Below, piece after piece: positions 3,961 through 61,702 of a stretch of 64,000 nucleotides of DNA. Below the pieces are notes generated by a model. It searched no databases. It was not told where the DNA came from and saw only the letters and a program-made list of their open reading frames with translations. Each line of letters starts with the position of its first letter. The stretch's first letter is position 1. The stretch spans positions 32,001 through 96,000 of the forward strand of contig CAVSBO010000018.1 of the NCBI GenBank assembly GCA_963726195.1, given 5' to 3'. The position numbers were made by a program, and so were the translations under genes. The stretch comes from Candidatus Thorarchaeota archaeon. GTDB lineage: Archaea > Asgardarchaeota > Thorarchaeia > Thorarchaeales > Thorarchaeaceae.

Positions 3961-4920
3961 CTAGCCAATCGCCAAGGACTGCTTCAGAACATCAGGGTTC
4001 ACTCGTCCAGCTTTGAGTGTTCTGCCGCTGGTTACGTCATTGACAGTGATTTCAGCAGGGCCCAACAGAGCGGGATCTAGTTTGTCAAGATCAAATGCGA
4101 CTGACTTGAGGATGTTGTAGAGGGGCCGCCCGTATGCTGACGATGCGGATGATGAAGCTCTTTCCACCAAGGCGTCTAGATTATCGCTCTCATCTGCCTT
4201 TACGAAGAAGAAGACTTTTCCACCATAAAGAATGCAATCATTGGCCATGCCCGTCGCTTTGTTGCTGTCCTTGTTGACCGGAGCGACCGGAGCGATACCA
4301 TGACCCGTCCTAATCCCTGCTGGTTCGAATCCAAGGGTCATGAGTCTGTATACACCGGTATCGACCACTCTTGCAGACATCACCAAACAACCAGCAATAC
4401 TCGTAGTAGGCGCAAGAATGCAGTAGAGATCAGTTGCGGAGATGCCGCACGAATCCGCAATTGATTGTGTGACGCTATCGGAAGGAGGTTCCCTTGTTTC
4501 TAGGCAGATTACTCCAACTCTGGAATCATCCCTGTAATCCAGCCTATCAAACAGCTCTCTCTCGGCACTTGCCAATGCCCTTGCGGGACCGGAGCATCTT
4601 GCGACGTGTTCACCAATCCTAATCTCCCAACCAGCATGCTGCGAGCCCAGCGTAGCAAGCTTGGGCTGGTCCGTCCCGACGACCACCGAGGGCAGAGTCA
4701 TGTCTCCTATGTGCATACTAGTGACTCTCACTGCTCCGAGTCCTCCTAGACAAGCTTCGGCACAAAGTCGGCCTGCTTCGATTCCGCCAGGCACCTTTAT
4801 TCCCGCATCAATCAAAGTTGTCCCGTTGGCCTGTACAGTCACTGCACATTGGAGTTTGTCTTTTCTGTCTATGATTTCCTGGACGATTTCCATGGCTTGC
4901 TCGTTGATGCTCGTCCTCAA
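3961..4920 (-). CDS. mch: Methenyltetrahydromethanopterin cyclohydrolase (or paralog)
   Basis: CLGGL, LGSQxAGW, SGPARAL, APTTSIAG, NDCILYGG and YGRP motifs of Mch. Confidence 0.88.
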   Translation of the reverse strand: MRTSINEQAMEIVQEIIDRKDKLQCAVTVQANGTTLIDAGIKVPGGIEAGRLCAEACLGGLGAVRVTSMHIGDMTLPSVVVGTDQPKLATLGSQHAGWEIRIGEHVARCSGPARALASAERELFDRLDYRDDSRVGVICLETREPPSDSVTQSIADSCGISATDLYCILAPTTSIAGCLVMSARVVDTGVYRLMTLGFEPAGIRTGHGIAPVAPVNKDSNKATGMANDCILYGGKVFFFVKADESDNLDALVERASSSASSAYGRPLYNILKSVAFDLDKLDPALLGPAEITVNDVTSGRTLKAGRVNPDVLKQSLAIG

Positions 4921-8742: not shown

Positions 8743-8852
8743 GGGTCGGTAGTCTAGCTTGGCTATAGTGGCTTTGCCTCACACAGGCCAGCGGCTAAGA
8801 TTCTTGGTTTGGGTCCAAGAGATCGCCGGTTCAAATCCGGCCCGGCCCACCA
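8743..8852 (+). tRNA. tRNA-Pro(TGG) with ~32-nt intron at a non-canonical D-arm position (~8767-8798)
   Basis: Acceptor GGGTCGG/CCGGCCC, anticodon arm CTTGG-TTTGGGT-CCAAG, T arm GCCGG-TTCAAAT-CCGGC, CCA. An extra hairpin lies within the D arm. Confidence 0.92.
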
Positions 8853-54588: not shown

Positions 54589-54647
54589 TGCTCAACAGTG
54601 TGCAGGCTAGATGGGTAGGCTCTCCTAGCTATCCACTACGCCTGTAC
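54589..54647 (+). other. 5' strand of the pre-16S processing stem
   Basis: TGCTCAACAGTG, GGGTAGG, TCTCCT, GCTATCCAC and GTAC are complementary to CACTGTTGAGCA, CTTGCCC, AGGGGA, GTGGATAGC and GTAC at 56356-56411. Confidence 0.85.
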
Positions 54648-55611
54648 TTCATCAAGCTCACTCAAAGTGTGCATAAACGTGCATGACGGTCGAACCTAGT
54701 TCGATTTACCTTGCCGGTCATGTGCGATATCGGGATGACTCTAGTCGATCCTGCTAGAGGGCACTGCTATCGACTTGGGGCTAAGACATGCAAGTGGAAC
54801 GAACTCGCATCCGAGTTCGTCGCGAACGGCTCAGTAGTGTCGTTAACTTACCCTGTGGAGGTGGATAACGCCGGGAAACTGGCGGTAATACACCGTAGGA
54901 GCGTCGTTCTGGAAATGATGTTGCTCTGAAATGGCGGTCCTAGGCATGTGGGATCGTCCGCCGCAGGACGGGACGGCACCGGATCATACTTGTAAGTGGG
55001 GTAATGGCCCACTTAGGTTTTGACCCGAACGGGCGATGTAAGTCGTGGCCCGGAGAGGGGCACTGAGACAAGGGCCCCAGCCCCACGGGGTGCAGCAGTT
55101 ACGAAACCTCAACAATGCGCGAAAGCGCGATTGGGCCAAGTCGAGTGATGGGGGATAACTCCATCTGTAGTGGATCCTTAGTACGGACCACCAGAAAGGA
55201 GAGGGCAAGGCTGGTGCCAGCCGCCGCGGTAAAACCAGCTCTTCGAGCGGTGCCCACAATTATTGAGCTTAAAGCGTCCGTAGCCTGTTTGGTAGGTCCC
55301 TGCTCAAATCCGGCCGCTCAACGGTCGGACTGGTAGGGATACCGCCTTGCTGGGGGACGGGAAACGGCGACGGTATTCCACAGGTAAGGGTGAAATCTTA
55401 TGATCTGTGGAGGACCACCAGTGGCGAAGGCGGTCGCCGAGAACGTGCCCGACGGTGAGGGACGAAACCCAGGGGAGCAAAGCGGATTAGATACCCGCGT
55501 AGTCCTGGGCGTAAACGATGCCCGTTAAGTGTTGCATTGGCCACGAGCCACTGCGGTGCTGAAGCGAAAGCGATAAACGGGCCGCTTGGGAAGTACGGTC
55601 GCAAGGCTGAA

Positions 55612-55681
<70 letters not shown>

Positions 55682-56243
55682 GCTTGCGGTTTAATTGGAC
55701 TCAACGCCGGAAAACTTACCCGGCCAGACAGCCGAATGAGAGCCAGACTGACGATCTTGCTCGACGAGCTGAGAGCTGGTGCATGGCCATCGCAAATTCG
55801 TGCCGTGAGGTATCAGCTTAAGTGCTGCAACGAATGAGATCCCTGCCACGTAGTTGCCAGCCGGGGGTACAAACCCCGTCGGGGCACACTACGGGGACCG
55901 CCAGCGATAAGCTGGAGGAAGGTGGGGGCCACGGTAGGTCAGTATGCCGCGATATGGCCGGGGCCACACGCGTGCTACAATGGCAGCGACAATGCGTCAC
56001 AACACCGAGAGGTGAAGTCAATCGCCAAACGCTGCCGTAGTTGGAATTGTGGGTTGGAACTCATCCACATGAACCTGGAATCCCTAGTATCCGCGTCTCA
56101 CTACGGCGCGGAGAATATGTCCCCGCTTCTTGCACACACCGCCCGTCGCTCCATGCGAGCGGCCTTGGGGTGAGGCGGCGTCCATAGGATGCTAACGAAT
56201 CTTGAGGTCGCAAGTAGGGAGAAGTCGTAACAAGGTATCCGTA

Positions 56244-56439
56244 GCGGAAGCTGCGGATGGAAGAAGATGAGATTTCCTCACCTTCCATCAATCACCTCCT
56301 ATGCTTTCTACCATAGAGGTAGAAGCGGCTTGTTTCTGCTCTTCGGAGCAGAGGGGTACTGGCGGGTGGATAGCGTACAAGGGGACTTGCCCTAACTGGC
56401 ACTGTTGAGCACCCTATTTCTTTCGCACAGGTTTGTCAT
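56244..56439 (+). repeat. Repeat copy R1 (native 16S 3' end plus trailer/processing strand)
   Basis: 196-nt block repeated at 58778-58973. Confidence 0.95.
56262..56291 (+). other. 30-nt BHB intron in 16S between GGA and UCACCUCCU (E. coli ~1531/1532)
   Basis: G-GATG-[GA|A]-GAAG...CTTC-CATC-[AA|T]-C. Removal restores GCGGATGGATCACCTCCT. Confidence 0.85.
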
Positions 56440-56494
56440 GTCCAGTGCAGGAGCTGCTTGATTCTTCGGGGTGCTGTTAGCATAAAGCCGCTGG

Positions 56495-56959
56495 TTATCC
56501 TTCTGTTGCGATTCGCCTGCTCAATGCTCGGGCTCTTGCCAGTTCTTCCGTTGGTGAGTCGTCGTTACAACTGTCCATGTAGTGTTGGTAGGCATCGATG
56601 CTTTCCTTGATGTAGTCCCCTGCCTCGGCGAGGTCTTTCTTGCGCTTGGTAATCCTTGCGAGTTCGTACGGGGTCCTAGCCAGGTCGAGTTCCAAGATTG
56701 GGTCTTGCTTGATTAAGTCCCTAATCAATGTCAGCTTCTTTTCGAGGTCAGTACGAGTTGTCCCGAGCTTCATTATGTCTTCAAGCTGAATTTCATGCAG
56801 AATTCGTGCCAGACTTGCAAGAAGCTGGGGGTAGTTCTCGACCCTTTTCTTGGTTGCATGCTCTTCGAAATAGTCTTTGGCGAAGTTGGAAATAGCGATC
56901 TTTGCTTCTCTCGTGGCGCTCCTCATTGTCCAAGAGTGTGTGGGGTCGACTTGATTCAA
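56495..56959 (-). CDS. Helical hypothetical protein (TPR-like), possibly N-truncated
   Basis: ORF with LARTPYELARI...AGDYIKESIDAY helical pattern. Confidence 0.55.
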   Translation of the reverse strand: MNQVDPTHSWTMRSATREAKIAISNFAKDYFEEHATKKRVENYPQLLASLARILHEIQLEDIMKLGTTRTDLEKKLTLIRDLIKQDPILELDLARTPYELARITKRKKDLAEAGDYIKESIDAYQHYMDSCNDDSPTEELARARALSRRIATEG

Positions 56960-56979
56960 AACCGCGTATCGCAGACGTT

Positions 56980-57621
56980 TCAGAGTCTTCTTCTGAGGTA
57001 CGCGACCGATAATACTAGGACAACAGCCCCGGCTAGCACTCCACCTGCCAAGAGGTTCACTGGCATACCTTCTGAAGTTGAGGTGGGAGTCGAGGATTGT
57101 GTACGATACAGTGCACAGTAGGAGTAATTGACAGTATCAGATATGCTCCATCTGCCAAGGCTGTCCTGTGCATAATACTCCACGTTCCACACTTTCAGCC
57201 TGTGATCTGGGTCTAAGACAAACGTGGTAGCATTCGCATAATACGAGTATACTTCGGTATACTTGGAATTGTTGACGGCCCAGGTGCCCATGTAGGTCAT
57301 GGTAACGTTCGTCCAAGTGGGGTCAGCATTGTCCTTGTAGCTGCCTATGGTCAAGTTCATCCCATTTGAATCCCCTATCCACACGGAAAGTTCGAGGACG
57401 AAACTCCAGGGAAGGGGTCTCGTATCTGCAGTCGTATCAACTATCAATCCAGAAAGGTCGACGAAGATAGGGCCCTCAGAGTTTGAACAGGCAAATGCTT
57501 TCGCATTTGTTGCAATAGGGGGCGCAACGAATAGGAGGGAGACGAGGACTGGTAGAACAAACATCGCGCACCTGATTCCACTAGCATAGATTCGCATGTT
57601 TACCACCGTTGCACTACCCAC
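56980..57621 (-). CDS. Surface protein with signal peptide, S/T linker and C-terminal TM anchor
   Basis: Hydrophobic N-terminus, YYAQDSLGRWS (Ig-like strand), STPTSTS, TM plus RRRL. Confidence 0.75.
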   Translation of the reverse strand: MGSATVVNMRIYASGIRCAMFVLPVLVSLLFVAPPIATNAKAFACSNSEGPIFVDLSGLIVDTTADTRPLPWSFVLELSVWIGDSNGMNLTIGSYKDNADPTWTNVTMTYMGTWAVNNSKYTEVYSYYANATTFVLDPDHRLKVWNVEYYAQDSLGRWSISDTVNYSYCALYRTQSSTPTSTSEGMPVNLLAGGVLAGAVVLVLSVAYLRRRL

Positions 57622-57802
57622 GCAAGATGAGTAGTCCAGCTGCTTGCCGCATAGTGCGGCGTAGCCCAGTCTCTCTGATCAATTGTAAAGTACATATCAG
57701 TCTTGTAGCCACTATGTATGTTCGTGCGCTTTGATATACATTTGTCGATTTGCGAAGGCTTGGCGCGTCTCTTGTATGAAGCATGTGCAGTTAAGATTGG
57801 TA

Positions 57803-57859
57803 GTACTGGCGGGTGGATAGCGTACAATGGGACTTGCCTAACTGGCACTGTTGAGCACC
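57803..57859 (+). repeat. Repeat copy R2 (16S 3' processing-stem strand)
   Basis: GTACTGGCGGGTGGATAGCGTACAATGGGACTTGCC-TAACTGGCACTGTTGAGCACC matches 56356-56413 with 1 substitution and 1 deletion. Confidence 0.95.
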
Positions 57860-57953
57860 TGTTCGTTTTCCTAGGAACCAAACTTGCTCCTGTGCATGTT
57901 GGGAGCGCTTCTTTCGCATGGTTAGTGCCTGAGTCTCTCTATGCTATGCACGC

Positions 57954-58371
57954 TTACATCGCAGTCGGGTCGAGCCGAGTCAACCCCTTTATTCTGTCAT
58001 AGACCTGATCCGTGGAGGCAATGGTATGGTCTGGATTGTCTTCGCTGAGTGAAACTGCTGCGTAGATTGCATCAAAGATGGATGGCAATTGGTAGTTCTC
58101 CAGAAGAAACAATGCGGCTGAGCTGATGGTCAATCGTTGTCGGAACAACTGATAGATTGGGGAACGCCACGATGTGACTCATGACGTCTCGAACTGAGGC
58201 CACGCCAGTGATGTTCCTCAAGACGTAGTACAGCTCAATCGAGAAGGCACTAGGGATTACGACATTGCCTAACTCTCCATTTCTTATCTTTGAGAACAAG
58301 CGAATTGCATGGGGCTTGAGGTAGTCTTCTTTCTTGTAGAAAGCCAGAATCATATCATTCTCAATCAACAC
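57954..58371 (-). CDS. vapC: PIN-domain toxin VapC, frameshift near 58130
   Basis: LIENDMILAF...IELYYVL in one frame, then SIFDAIYAA...IASTDQVYDRI in the next. Confidence 0.85.
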
Positions 58372-58636
58372 TCCGACTCTTCCTCCGCCATCTCTTGGAC
58401 ACATCCTTGGTAGCCTCAGTTTCTCCCTGTTGGAGAAGCTCAGCAATGGAACCCTGAACATCCAATTCAGGCTTCTCAGAGGGCACCGGAAAGAGAATAT
58501 GGTAGGCTCCGAGACTGAGGAGAAGGAATGTATCTCCCTCTAGTGCAGCTTTCTTTGGGATTCTGATGCGTCTCTGACCATCCATTCGAACTCTTGCTAT
58601 CATAAAGAACATCTCGAATAGTGATATAACTGACAT
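58361..58636 (-). CDS. vapB: AbrB/MazE-type antitoxin VapB (likely start ~58603)
   Basis: VRMDGQRRIRIPK swapped-hairpin motif. Overlaps the vapC start. Confidence 0.8.
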   Translation of the reverse strand: MSVISLFEMFFMIARVRMDGQRRIRIPKKAALEGDTFLLLSLGAYHILFPVPSEKPELDVQGSIAELLQQGETEATKDVSKRWRRKSRSVD

Positions 58637-58777
58637 GATATAAGGATGTGGATGAAATACGCAGTTTGTGGACGAAATGCCGCTTTTTCACCAATCTATC
58701 GTCGTGCCAGAAATCAACGCTGCCAGAACATGAAATGTGGTACGGTCTAGGCCGCGCGAAGGGCCACTCCTTTTGCT

Positions 58778-58973
58778 GCGGAAGCTGCGGATGGAAGAAG
58801 ATTAGATTTCCTCGTCCTCCATCAATCACCTCCTGTGTTTTCTACCATAGAGGTAGAAGCGGCTTGTTTCTGCTCTTCGGAGCAGAGGGGTACTGGCGGG
58901 TGGATAGCGTACAAGGGGACTTGCCCTAACTGGCACTGTTGAGCACCCTCTTTCTTATTCACAGGTTTGTCAT
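58778..58973 (+). repeat. Repeat copy R3 (16S helix-45 3' half, intron, anti-SD and trailer)
   Basis: Direct copy of 56244-56439. 58839-58949 is identical to 56305-56415. Confidence 0.97.
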
Positions 58974-59016
58974 TCTTAGTGTGCAAGCTGTTTGATGTCT
59001 GTAGGCGATGTTGACG

Positions 59017-59301
59017 TTAGGGTACCGGTTGGCTTACTCTCTCGATTGCCTGAAGTACTTCGTCCACCTTCTTCTGAGAGAGAATCGTTCTGACCGCATC
59101 AAGTTCGAGCCGATTTCTTATTATGACACCTATCTTATTGATTGGATTTCCGCTCTTGTCAATCGGATTGACCTCAATAGCTAGATAGGCTGGTTCATCC
59201 TTTGATTGAGGTATCTTTCTGATGAATATCCCGGGCTCGGTAGTCCTCATGCGTTCGAATCTTCTTCCGTGCTTGAGCATATCTCTCAGTGATTCTTCCA
59301 T
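59017..59301 (-). CDS. Small hypothetical protein (94 aa)
   Basis: ATG preceded by the SD-like GGTGA. Protein-like composition (GIFIRKIP...YLAIEVNP). Confidence 0.75.
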   Translation of the reverse strand: MEESLRDMLKHGRRFERMRTTEPGIFIRKIPQSKDEPAYLAIEVNPIDKSGNPINKIGVIIRNRLELDAVRTILSQKKVDEVLQAIERVSQPVP

Positions 59302-59390
59302 TCAAATCACCCGGTCATCCTAGTTGTAAGGTGTGCGCAGAGCTCCGACTCTCTTGTACCATTTGGTATATCGACTCAGGTCTTAGTCTT

Positions 59391-59408
59391 ACTGTCACTG
59401 TTGAGCAC
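59391..59408 (+). repeat. Repeat copy R4 (short core)
   Basis: ACTGTCACTGTTGAGCAC matches ACTGGCACTGTTGAGCAC at 17 of 18 positions. Confidence 0.75.
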
Positions 59409-59495
59409 TGTCTATGTTCTTGTGCATTGAATCAACATTAGTCCATGTCAGAAGGTCTGCGTAATGCAGCCATGCCTTGAGCTCTGGCGGACTCT

Positions 59496-60938
59496 CTAGC
59501 TCAGCTTCTTGGCTCTCTGCTTGATTATGTCCCTCATCTTGGCCTCAACATCTTTGTCCAGCGGTGGTATCTTATGGGTCTCAAGAATCCTCTTGACTTT
59601 CTCCTTGGCTCGCTGGACTATGTCTTTCGATCCTTTTGCTTCCCAGTCTGGTCTCGAAGTCCTATCAGTAATCCAAGGTTGCCAGTATTCCTCTCCGACA
59701 TACTTCCTAGAGAACTCAAGAGCATCATCGTTTGTGAAATGATTGCTATCGTGTCCGACTTTGTCTATGATATCGACCGCTAGAGTCTCTTTCGTTACTT
59801 TGATGCCCTCTGCAATTCGTTTGATTGCCCCACAGATTTCATTGCTGATTGCGAACTGCTCATAGGAAGCAGTTATTCCCGTCTCGACGATTCCATAGAC
59901 TGCGTCATGCACGACATCGGCACCGGCCAGAGTGGCAACGAGCACATTCAGAGCATTCTCGTATGCGGCTTGGGAATCCGGAACCTTCGAGTCGCTAATG
60001 CCACAGGCCCCGTAGTATGGAATGCCATAGTAATGGGCCATTTGACACATTGCAGCATGAATCAGACCATTCTCTGGTGCCCCATACGCGGCAGTGCCAT
60101 GTCTCTGGTCTAGGATTGTGCCGCCTGAGCCCCACATGATAGGGGTTCCAGAACCGACGAGTTCTGTAATCACGACGACCGTATGATTCTCTGCTATGCC
60201 CTGTACGATTGATCCTGCAAGCGTAGCCGGAGCACTTGCGCCAGACAGCAAACCTGTGCTGATGTCAAATGGAATTCTGTATTTCGCGCATTCAAGGATT
60301 ATGTCGATAATGTTTGCGGTATACTTGAGTGGGGGAACACTATTGAGACCCGTGTCAATCCAAATCGGATTCCTGACGAATTCCTCTTCTCCGCCGACGA
60401 ATATCTTCGCCATTTCAATGATGTCTCTGAATGCCTGTAAGCTTGTTGCAAAGAAGCTGCTGTGCTTCTCAGTGTTCTTGAGCATCGAGAGAGCCATCGT
60501 TTGTTCCTTTATGCCATCGGGTACGTCCTGCGGGATTATGTTCGCCTTTACATAATCGACAGTAGGGAAGTAGTCTGAGAGAAGCGTAAACTCCTCCAAG
60601 TCTTTCAATGTCGAAGGCCTGCGTTCACCGGTCTCCAAGTCATATGTGTACTGTGCTCCGAAGGCGTTCGTGTAATAAGAGCCGCCGTCACCTACCACGA
60701 AGTTGTGTTTCGGGTTTCGCGCCTTCATGAGATGACGACTCGGGGTCTTCTTGAGGGCTTCGCGAACGAGGAATTCCGGGATTTTGGCCACTTTCTTCCT
60801 TTCATCAATGATTGCTCCGGCTTCCCCAAGAATCCGAAGAGCTTCTTCGTGTTGAATCAGTATGCCAGTTCTTTCAAGAACCTCCATCGCAGCCAAGTGT
60901 ATTGCATGAATGTCGTCACGACTCATCAGTTCAAACAT
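59496..60938 (-). CDS. Trimethylamine methyltransferase (MttB) superfamily, non-pyrrolysine member
   Basis: PATLAG, GAPE, SDSKVPDSQAAYE, GIVETG. No in-frame TAG (Ile at the Pyl-equivalent site). GGAGGAG SD before ATG 60938. Confidence 0.9.
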   Translation of the reverse strand: MFELMSRDDIHAIHLAAMEVLERTGILIQHEEALRILGEAGAIIDERKKVAKIPEFLVREALKKTPSRHLMKARNPKHNFVVGDGGSYYTNAFGAQYTYDLETGERRPSTLKDLEEFTLLSDYFPTVDYVKANIIPQDVPDGIKEQTMALSMLKNTEKHSSFFATSLQAFRDIIEMAKIFVGGEEEFVRNPIWIDTGLNSVPPLKYTANIIDIILECAKYRIPFDISTGLLSGASAPATLAGSIVQGIAENHTVVVITELVGSGTPIMWGSGGTILDQRHGTAAYGAPENGLIHAAMCQMAHYYGIPYYGACGISDSKVPDSQAAYENALNVLVATLAGADVVHDAVYGIVETGITASYEQFAISNEICGAIKRIAEGIKVTKETLAVDIIDKVGHDSNHFTNDDALEFSRKYVGEEYWQPWITDRTSRPDWEAKGSKDIVQRAKEKVKRILETHKIPPLDKDVEAKMRDIIKQRAKKLS

Positions 60939-61003
60939 AGATTCTCCTCCTGTTCTTTCGTCACCCTTCTCTTGCGCCCGCAGTTTGGCAAAACAGACCG
61001 GAA

Positions 61004-61654
61004 TCACTTCTTCTCCACAAGTCGCTTGGCAAGACTTGCCGCTGTTACGGCGTCACCCGCCCATCCATCAGCTCCGATGTCTCTCGCCCACTTTTCAGTA
61101 GTAGGAGCTCCTCCGATTATCACTTTGACCTTGTCCCGGAGTCCAGCTACTCTGAGTTCATCAATAATCTTCTTCTGCACTGGCATGGATGATGTTATCA
61201 GCGATGACATCCCAACGATGTCGGGTTTCTGTTCCTTCACGTTCTTCACGAACACCTCAACTGGGACGTCTTCGCCTAAGTTTATGACCTCGAAGCCATT
61301 GGCTTCAAGCATTGTTGCTACAATGTCCTTGCCTATGCTATGGATGTCTCCTTGGACTGTGCCTATGATGACTTTCCCAACAGTCTTCATTTTCCCCTTT
61401 GTCGCTTTGAGTTCCCCCAGAAGCACGGCCATACCAGCTTTCATGGCCTTGCCCGACGCCATTAGTTCCACGAGGAATACCTCCCCTTCCCCGAACTTGT
61501 CACCGACTTCTCTGACACCCTTTGCCAGTCCGTTTGTGATTGCTTCAAGAGGTGGAATCTTTGCTTCCAGCGCCTTCCTTGCGGCTTTTTCTGCCTCATC
61601 CTTCTTTCCTCGGATGACTGCCTGTCTTAGTTCTTCAAGAATCGCGGATGACAT
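61004..61654 (-). CDS. Cognate corrinoid (B12-binding) protein
   Basis: GTVQGDIHSIGKDIV, DIVGMSSL, IIGGAP, GADG. Confidence 0.93.
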   Translation of the reverse strand: MSSAILEELRQAVIRGKKDEAEKAARKALEAKIPPLEAITNGLAKGVREVGDKFGEGEVFLVELMASGKAMKAGMAVLLGELKATKGKMKTVGKVIIGTVQGDIHSIGKDIVATMLEANGFEVINLGEDVPVEVFVKNVKEQKPDIVGMSSLITSSMPVQKKIIDELRVAGLRDKVKVIIGGAPTTEKWARDIGADGWAGDAVTAASLAKRLVEKK

Positions 61655-61702
61655 TCTGCTTTCTGCCTCAATCTTTGAATGGTTTTCAGGTTTCAATGTT
61701 GG

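Follow-up and report, generated by a model that had tools for sequence, protein, structure and literature searches.

A cassette array bounded by 16S rRNA gene tails in Thorarchaeota and its link to 16S-guided aCas1–TnpB elements

The single 16S rRNA gene of Candidatus Thorarchaeota archaeon (assembly GCA_963726195.1, 88.9% complete; 2.9-Mb genome, coded G000 and called the host below) is followed by a row of gene cassettes, and what separates them are direct copies of that gene's 3' end and processing-stem trailer, truncated at the 5' side. The array lies in a stretch of 64,000 nucleotides (nt) of contig CAVSBO010000018.1, here called the window, to which coordinates refer unless another genome or contig is named; relatives are coded G001 and so on. 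In relatives, such arrays can hold an element that joins tnpB, encoding an RNA-guided nuclease with guides matching the 16S gene, to a giant gene for a protein with a Cas1 fold (aCas1). We suggest, with moderate confidence, that the array is both a by-product and the vehicle of this homing element, arising through cutting, one-sided homologous repair, illegitimate rejoining and shuffling between copies. The new point is the link between array and element, as a literature search found no published description of a 16S-tail array or of an rRNA-aimed TnpB.

The 16S-tail array

The 16S gene, the likely homology anchor of the array, occupies 54738–56300 on the plus strand, and its 3' end at 56300 lies beyond a 30-nt hairpin insertion at 56261–56290. 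In cofolding, the trailer at 56353–56410 pairs with the leader strand of the processing stem at 54590–54650 (plus strand), which bears out the proposal of a preliminary description of this DNA that the repeated sequence includes the 3' strand of the pre-16S stem; native and displaced trailers were not distinguishable by the energies of their duplexes with the leader. The four direct repeats reported there were recovered as well, with the core 18-mer present four times, always on the plus strand, as compared with none in 100 shuffled sequences. R1 (56244–56439) comprises the native 16S end, trailer, core and T-rich tail; R2 (57803–57859) is a displaced copy beginning inside the stem; R3 (58778–58973) begins in helix 45 (h45), past the target-adjacent motif (TAM) of a TnpB target near position 1498, and carries the same hairpin insertion as the native gene; R4 (59391–59408) consists of the core only. 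The copies differ from one another in sequence: R1 and R3 are identical at 186 of 196 nt, with weaker similarity for about 70 nt beyond (84% over 270 nt), R2 is 96.6% identical over 58 nt, and R4 matches at 17 of 18 positions. A genome-wide repeat search found no further trailer copy elsewhere in the host. The units between the copies measure 1363, 918 and 417 nt and their genes are all on the minus strand, as had been described. Antisense cargo is not the rule in the family, where 135 genes on the plus strand compare with 89 on the minus strand over 117 units.

Across the family, 155 displaced copies were scored in 39 genomes, two of them single-contig. At their 3' side they end alike, with the core and T-rich tail, and their 5' ends are staggered over about 200 nt; most reach 40–210 nt upstream of the core from variable starts, and core-only copies are represented by R4 and by a copy at 4085 in G035. 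Outside the family, 16S ends were found once, or twice at most, per genome, and multiple copies are thus confined to it. The median unit length is 1.5 kb. Comparison of the regions downstream of 16S confirmed that the cassettes vary in content and order among relatives, as expected of a variable array anchored on the 16S 3' end. The same-genus genome G003 is colinear with the host on both sides of the array; its order runs native trailer, 94-amino-acid (aa) gene, hemerythrin gene, and it lacks units 1 and 2 of the host and the stretch 59333–61657 (R4, mttB and a corrinoid protein gene), so that the variable region extends past R4. The 94-aa gene directly behind the native trailer of G003 also supports growth of the array at the side adjoining 16S. 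Units shared between genomes break at or near the core (G014/G028, G006/G035), and some are bounded on the far side, in different genomes, by one and the same truncated copy (G032/G075, G012/G026). Behind the 16S gene of G015 (locus L010), the sequence is unlike any family trailer and resembles the start of 23S, possibly from a chimeric contig.

The aCas1–TnpB element and its guides

The first gene behind R1, an open reading frame (ORF) at 56495–56959 on the minus strand that had been called tetratricopeptide-repeat-like, proved instead to be a C-terminal stub of the giant aCas1 protein. A profile built from the C-terminal 330 aa of 12 aCas1 proteins, with the host genome left out of the building set, has this ORF as its best match in the host (E 8e-24, homology over 56507–56944), with every other sequence scoring far lower; neither a search for longer homologs with the stub as single query nor one pairwise BLAST gave a match. 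In nine genomes, a full aCas1 gene ends 50–105 nt past the native core; stubs of differing length, ten in all, lie 55–104 nt behind a native or displaced core in nine genomes including the host. Because of the profile match and this shared distance behind the core, the first 'cargo' gene is, judged from sequence, a remnant of the aCas1–TnpB element.

Many arrays of relatives hold a 560–650-aa TnpB (PF07282) with a conserved rearranged RuvC site, D260/G359/E413/D447, of a type predicted to be active (PMC10691335). Divergently oriented from tnpB is a gene of 1,500–1,750 codons for the giant protein of about 1,700 aa, and a downstream GTTCACTCA-type motif accompanies tnpB beside aCas1; tnpB is absent from the window. 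In the model of the giant protein (predicted local distance difference test score, pLDDT, 92), residues 1–230 adopt a Cas1 helical-domain fold (177 residues aligned, rmsd 3.4), with VIA scores of Z 13.3 to Cas1 and Z 11.0 to a casposase. Residues 580–810 adopt a RecA-like fold by structural comparison, and an invariant PD-(D/E)xK/QxxxY motif lies between the two regions. E91, H156 and D167 (numbered in the G005 protein) are nearly invariant, and the catalytic E/H/D set is thus kept. We assign the giant gene as aCas1, a predicted fusion of Cas1 fold, PD-(D/E)xK nuclease and RecA-like fold; a Z of 13 would by itself be borderline for a helical domain, and the assignment is made because five Cas1 entries stand among the top ten matches and the nuclease motif and tnpB linkage match the loci of PMC10691335. 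The fold alone gave this identity, as searches of Pfam, NCBIfam, PADLOC, PDB sequences and the Atlas returned no identification, and the C-terminal half (pLDDT 89) had no Foldseek match at E≤0.001. Relatives of aCas1 occur in 28 of 43 genomes of this family as compared with 1 of 157 other Asgard genomes. The host assembly contains aCas1 genes of another clade, one of them intact (1,722 aa, motifs intact) and located elsewhere in the genome.

Short units behind tnpB, each following a CAGGTCGG-like motif, match 16S for 11–27 nt. The matched sites lie near 1340, 1391, 1498 and 1530 in approximate E. coli numbering, G[GA]AT stands before each of them in 16S, and 16S-matching guides were found at 16 loci and at none of about 22 related TnpB loci elsewhere. 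The guided sites coincide with insertions of about 30 nt in Thorarchaeota 16S genes, and the guided site is interrupted in the genome's own 16S in 12 of 17 cases, as compared with about 4.1 expected. In relatives, the guide match thus points to a free-standing nuclease whose target spans the point where an intron is inserted. In the window, sequence comparison places the insertion at 56261–56290 (plus strand) inside the 1530 target; it is probably a mini-intron, for which splicing is predicted. The host 16S gene also has two substitutions in the 1391 target, and retains TAM and target intact for the relatives' 1340 guide (56077–56092) and 1498 guide (56223–56240).

Several observations on guides and elements stand apart from the array. 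A second 16S insertion of about 31 nt lies at 55617–55647, near position 908, and no guide to it was seen. Behind tnpB at L116 (G066), two copies of the unit motif enclose a 17-nt plus-strand piece of 16S that starts from the predicted 1498 cut and may resemble a freshly integrated spacer. At L113 and L112, an extra unit upstream of tnpB, between it and aCas1, matches 12–14 nt of the element's own promoter region, located behind TAAT, which suggests likely autorepression. The window also contains a probable tRNA-Pro with a D-arm insertion of about 30 nt (8743–8849, plus strand), missed by ARAGORN and below the Rfam cut-off; the form without the insertion is matched by guides of another TnpB clade (L118, L122, L150) and, in a second host copy (C16:188552), is preceded by GAAT, so the guide–intron logic may extend to tRNA genes. 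A further clade (L120, L123, L126–L129, L144) has a common guide start, TGCATGCA, for which no target was found. An aCas1–TnpB pair near the 16S clade by sequence (L132, G012 C2:477–480 kb) lies 110 kb from 16S without a 16S-matching guide. In the host, an other-clade tnpB lies beside a broken aCas1 directly upstream of a tRNA-like gene (L130, C16:221692–223383), with plain flank at the guide position.

Copy boundaries, a homing origin and competing explanations

The starts of the displaced copies are not evenly placed. The 31 copies that bear h45 retain at most 9 nt of the 1498 protospacer; an intact 1498 target occurs in no displaced copy, and an intact 1530 target in three only, from genus g10, where no 16S-aimed guide was found. 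The 1530 intron is present in 26 of these 31 copies as compared with 13 of 39 native genes, including copies in hosts whose native gene is intron-less. In copies without h45, the starts set in sharply at +19 to +23 relative to the 1530 TAM, with 13 starts in +15 to +23 and 5 in −12 to +14, away from the intron site at +2/+3. The ISDra2 TnpB cuts 15–21 bp from its TAM (PMC8612924), and the copy starts fit such a geometry. The 1498 and 1530 boundaries would differ because the right end of a 1498 cut keeps TAM and target until trimmed into the seed, while that of a 1530 cut has no TAM and could be joined at the cut. In addition, the 16S gene of G003 groups with that of G001 up to about position 510–550 and with that of the host beyond (76:16 vs 10:26 informative sites, max-chi permutation p 0.0005), a mosaicism that supports the homology-driven exchange proposed in the preliminary description.

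In the homing process that we favor, the donor allele would comprise a 16S gene with one or more mini-introns, its trailer, the giant aCas1 gene, tnpB with guides, and further cargo. On meeting an intron-less recipient 16S gene, TnpB would cut it near its 3' end, at about 1340, 1391, 1498 or 1530, next to the 5' TAM G[GA]AT. The left end would be repaired by homology inside 16S, with the donor intron, the trailer and a variable length of downstream DNA being copied, and the copy would be joined to the trimmed right end of the recipient either illegitimately, possibly by the nuclease and integrase domains of aCas1, or through homology to a trailer copy of the donor. The old tail of the recipient would be left downstream as a 5'-truncated direct repeat together with its cargo. 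Short copying or later deletion would yield aCas1 stubs such as that at 56495–56959, and ordinary recombination between copies would reshuffle and delete units. A bolder version, which we put forward tentatively, is that of a gene-capture array built by a natural RNA-guided gene drive against the 16S gene of its host: TnpB would cut, the aCas1–nuclease–RecA-like protein would trim and join the unmatched end, mini-introns would immunize the gene, and the broken rRNA tail left by each round would become a cassette boundary.

Several points weigh against a homing origin. No displaced copy begins at the 1340 or 1391 cut, although long copies may have been lost or collapsed in assembly. The onset at +19 lies near the trailer hairpin, and alignment ends blur the starts. 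The genomes are related, and kinship inflates all of the statistics, so that the p-values overstate their case. Five guides match an unprotected 16S gene of their own genome. The host assembly has no 16S-guided tnpB, and the host 16S gene holds undamaged targets without introns at 1340 and 1498; R3 therefore needs a later exchange of the 16S end. Finally, the arrays of G027, G029 and G012 have neither the element nor introns at readable sites.

The chief alternative is a nuclease-independent hotspot, which we consider rather unlikely. Incoming DNA would recombine in the conserved 16S gene and join illegitimately or at a trailer copy; introns would block strand exchange and set the 5' limit, and aCas1–TnpB would have come in later as a passenger, favoring its own transfer and removing target copies. 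The 16S mosaicism, the shared units that break at or near the core, the units that move with their downstream truncated copy and the arrays without element or introns all accord with this, as do the intact 1340 and 1498 targets of the host and the five self-matching guides. By itself, however, a hotspot would not lead one to expect starts that set in at +19 to +23, at a remove from the intron site, or the first position held by the element and its stubs.

Casposon-like integration is less probable still. Here aCas1, in cis or in trans through the 1,722-aa paralog, would insert units at the core, and a core of 13–18 bp would be the duplicated target. The Cas1 fold with its Cas1 and casposase scores, the conserved E91, H156 and D167, the core-only copies (R4 and that of G035) and the intact motifs of the host paralog speak for it. 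The long and variable upstream reach of most copies does not, and no conserved end or terminal repeat was found between the core and the aCas1 stop, nor a flanking repeat at the C16 element. Three modules and the C16 element were examined for terminal inverted repeats and a target-site duplication, and none was found apart from the core. Conservation of the core is expected regardless of any role in insertion, since it pairs with the leader. No family B DNA polymerase was recognized among the neighbors in ORF lists, for which no dedicated hidden Markov model (HMM) search was made.

An array of the integron or tRNA-island type, driven in trans by a tyrosine or serine recombinase, is very improbable, although the repeat–unit architecture, the many toxin–antitoxin (TA) pairs and one GTTRRRY-like heptamer in the core recall such systems. 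The heptamer is broken in many relatives, gene orientation is mixed, and the repeats are not attC-like, as their folding does not surpass that of shuffled sequences for either strand (z −0.5 to +2.3). As the preliminary description had noted, the window holds no integrase or transposase; no tyrosine recombinase, serine recombinase, reverse transcriptase or IS110 was found there. The host genome has one resolvase and one tyrosine recombinase, both on other contigs. Among 86 family genomes, 29 carry tyrosine recombinases and 57 none, with none on an array contig and none in the single-contig G027, which speaks largely against a classical site-specific recombinase; neither an IntI nor a linked integrase with a fixed crossover yielding equal-length att repeats accompanies the array. 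Tandem islands at tRNA and tmRNA 3' ends are bounded by a duplicated 3' part of a stable-RNA gene. Unlike them, the present array has no integrase, no fixed crossover and staggered 5' ends. Two further candidates were rejected: retro-copying, as the host genome has no reverse transcriptase and the copies are restricted to the 16S flank, and LAGLIDADG homing, with 0 of 86 genomes over the PF00961 cut-off in a search that covered this family only. Misassembly beside the rRNA gene is hardly credible: no second assembly of the host species was found by metagenome pattern scan or exact-protein look-up, and a frameshift in the window's vapC gene may be an assembly error, yet the copies differ, the same architecture recurs in 39 genomes, two of them single-contig, and G003 is colinear on both sides.

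Related systems and remaining features of the window

A homing origin would place the element closest to collaborative homing (PMC2790892, PMC13565253), in which the nuclease, encoded outside the intron, attacks the allele of a conserved gene that lacks it, and its gene is spread by co-conversion with the flank. Our system, as predicted from sequence, differs in being RNA-guided, in up to four chromosomal rRNA sites, in hairpin introns of about 30 nt, in one-sided homology and in the leftover repeat–cargo array. By analogy, the element may work like collaborative homing coupled to tandem accretion rather than as an integron. The Asgard aCas1–TnpB loci Cas1H-Asgard-1 and -2 (PMC10691335) likewise have a Cas1-fold giant gene beside tnpB with a downstream GTTCACTCA-type motif; a transposon was proposed there, no target was named and the word 'rRNA' appears nowhere in the paper, whereas the clade described here sits behind 16S, has guides that do not match the element's flank and is tied to a cassette array. 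Restorative homing by IS200/IS605 TnpB (PMC8612924) shares a 5' TAM ending in AT, a guide directly after the scaffold and repair of the break from a homologous copy. By comparison, the element here is aimed at an essential gene of its host, at a distance of hundreds to thousands of bases, and not at the excision joint; there are several guides, and Y1 transposase is lacking. Integrons and clusters of attC sites lacking integron integrases, including archaeal ones (bioRxiv 2022.02.06.479319), are also rows of small, variable, TA-rich units with the newest near one end; here there is no IntI and no attC hairpin, the repeats are host rRNA tails of variable length, and genes take both orientations. 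HeimM2 beside a Heimdallarchaeum 16S gene (PMC8813620) is a nuclease-bearing element adjoining an Asgard 16S gene as well, but it is a single element whose homing-endonuclease homolog is protein-guided, and no array has been reported for it.

The link would give the computationally described Asgard aCas1–TnpB loci a concrete target, TAM and predicted cut site, and it provides an explanation, open to testing, for the tiny ORF-less introns of archaeal rRNA. Throughout an Asgard family, accessory genes enter at an essential rRNA gene, and the array would be, if the proposal is true, a gene-capture platform without an att site or classical integrase. The mosaicism implies transfer of 16S 3' halves among Thorarchaeota species, with consequences for 16S phylogeny and primer design. 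Furthermore, the predicted fusion of Cas1, PD-(D/E)xK and RecA-like parts beside a multi-guide TnpB bears on the origin of CRISPR adaptation and arrays.

The remaining cargo of the window, all on the minus strand, begins behind the aCas1 stub with an orphan at 56980–57621, probably a surface protein, with hydrophobic stretches at its N- and C-terminus; it has no Pfam or NCBIfam match, and a weak Atlas lead (0.86–0.89) to archaeal hypothetical and PGF-CTERM clusters. The second unit had been read as a vapBC TA pair, but the pair is not intact: the vapC-type PIN gene (57954–58371) is 75% identical to a homolog in G032 that is intact and passes Pfam PIN, yet a single additional base stands near 58115–58121 relative to three relatives, and the toxin frame is broken, by mutation or possibly by assembly error. 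Its putative antitoxin (58361–58636), AbrB-like by eye and without an HMM match, has 63–74% identical partners in the arrays of G005, G032 and G069, where the pair stands beside other neighbors. The Thorarchaeota-specific 94-aa gene (59017–59301) is found outside arrays in other genera. A fourth unit, 59409–61657, encodes an mttB-family methyltransferase and a corrinoid protein (mttB–mttC) and has a homolog behind a trailer copy in G014. An Rfam PYLIS_3 (mttB) match lies inside the methyltransferase gene at 59900–59999 (minus strand), and the frame of this gene runs through without an in-frame stop.

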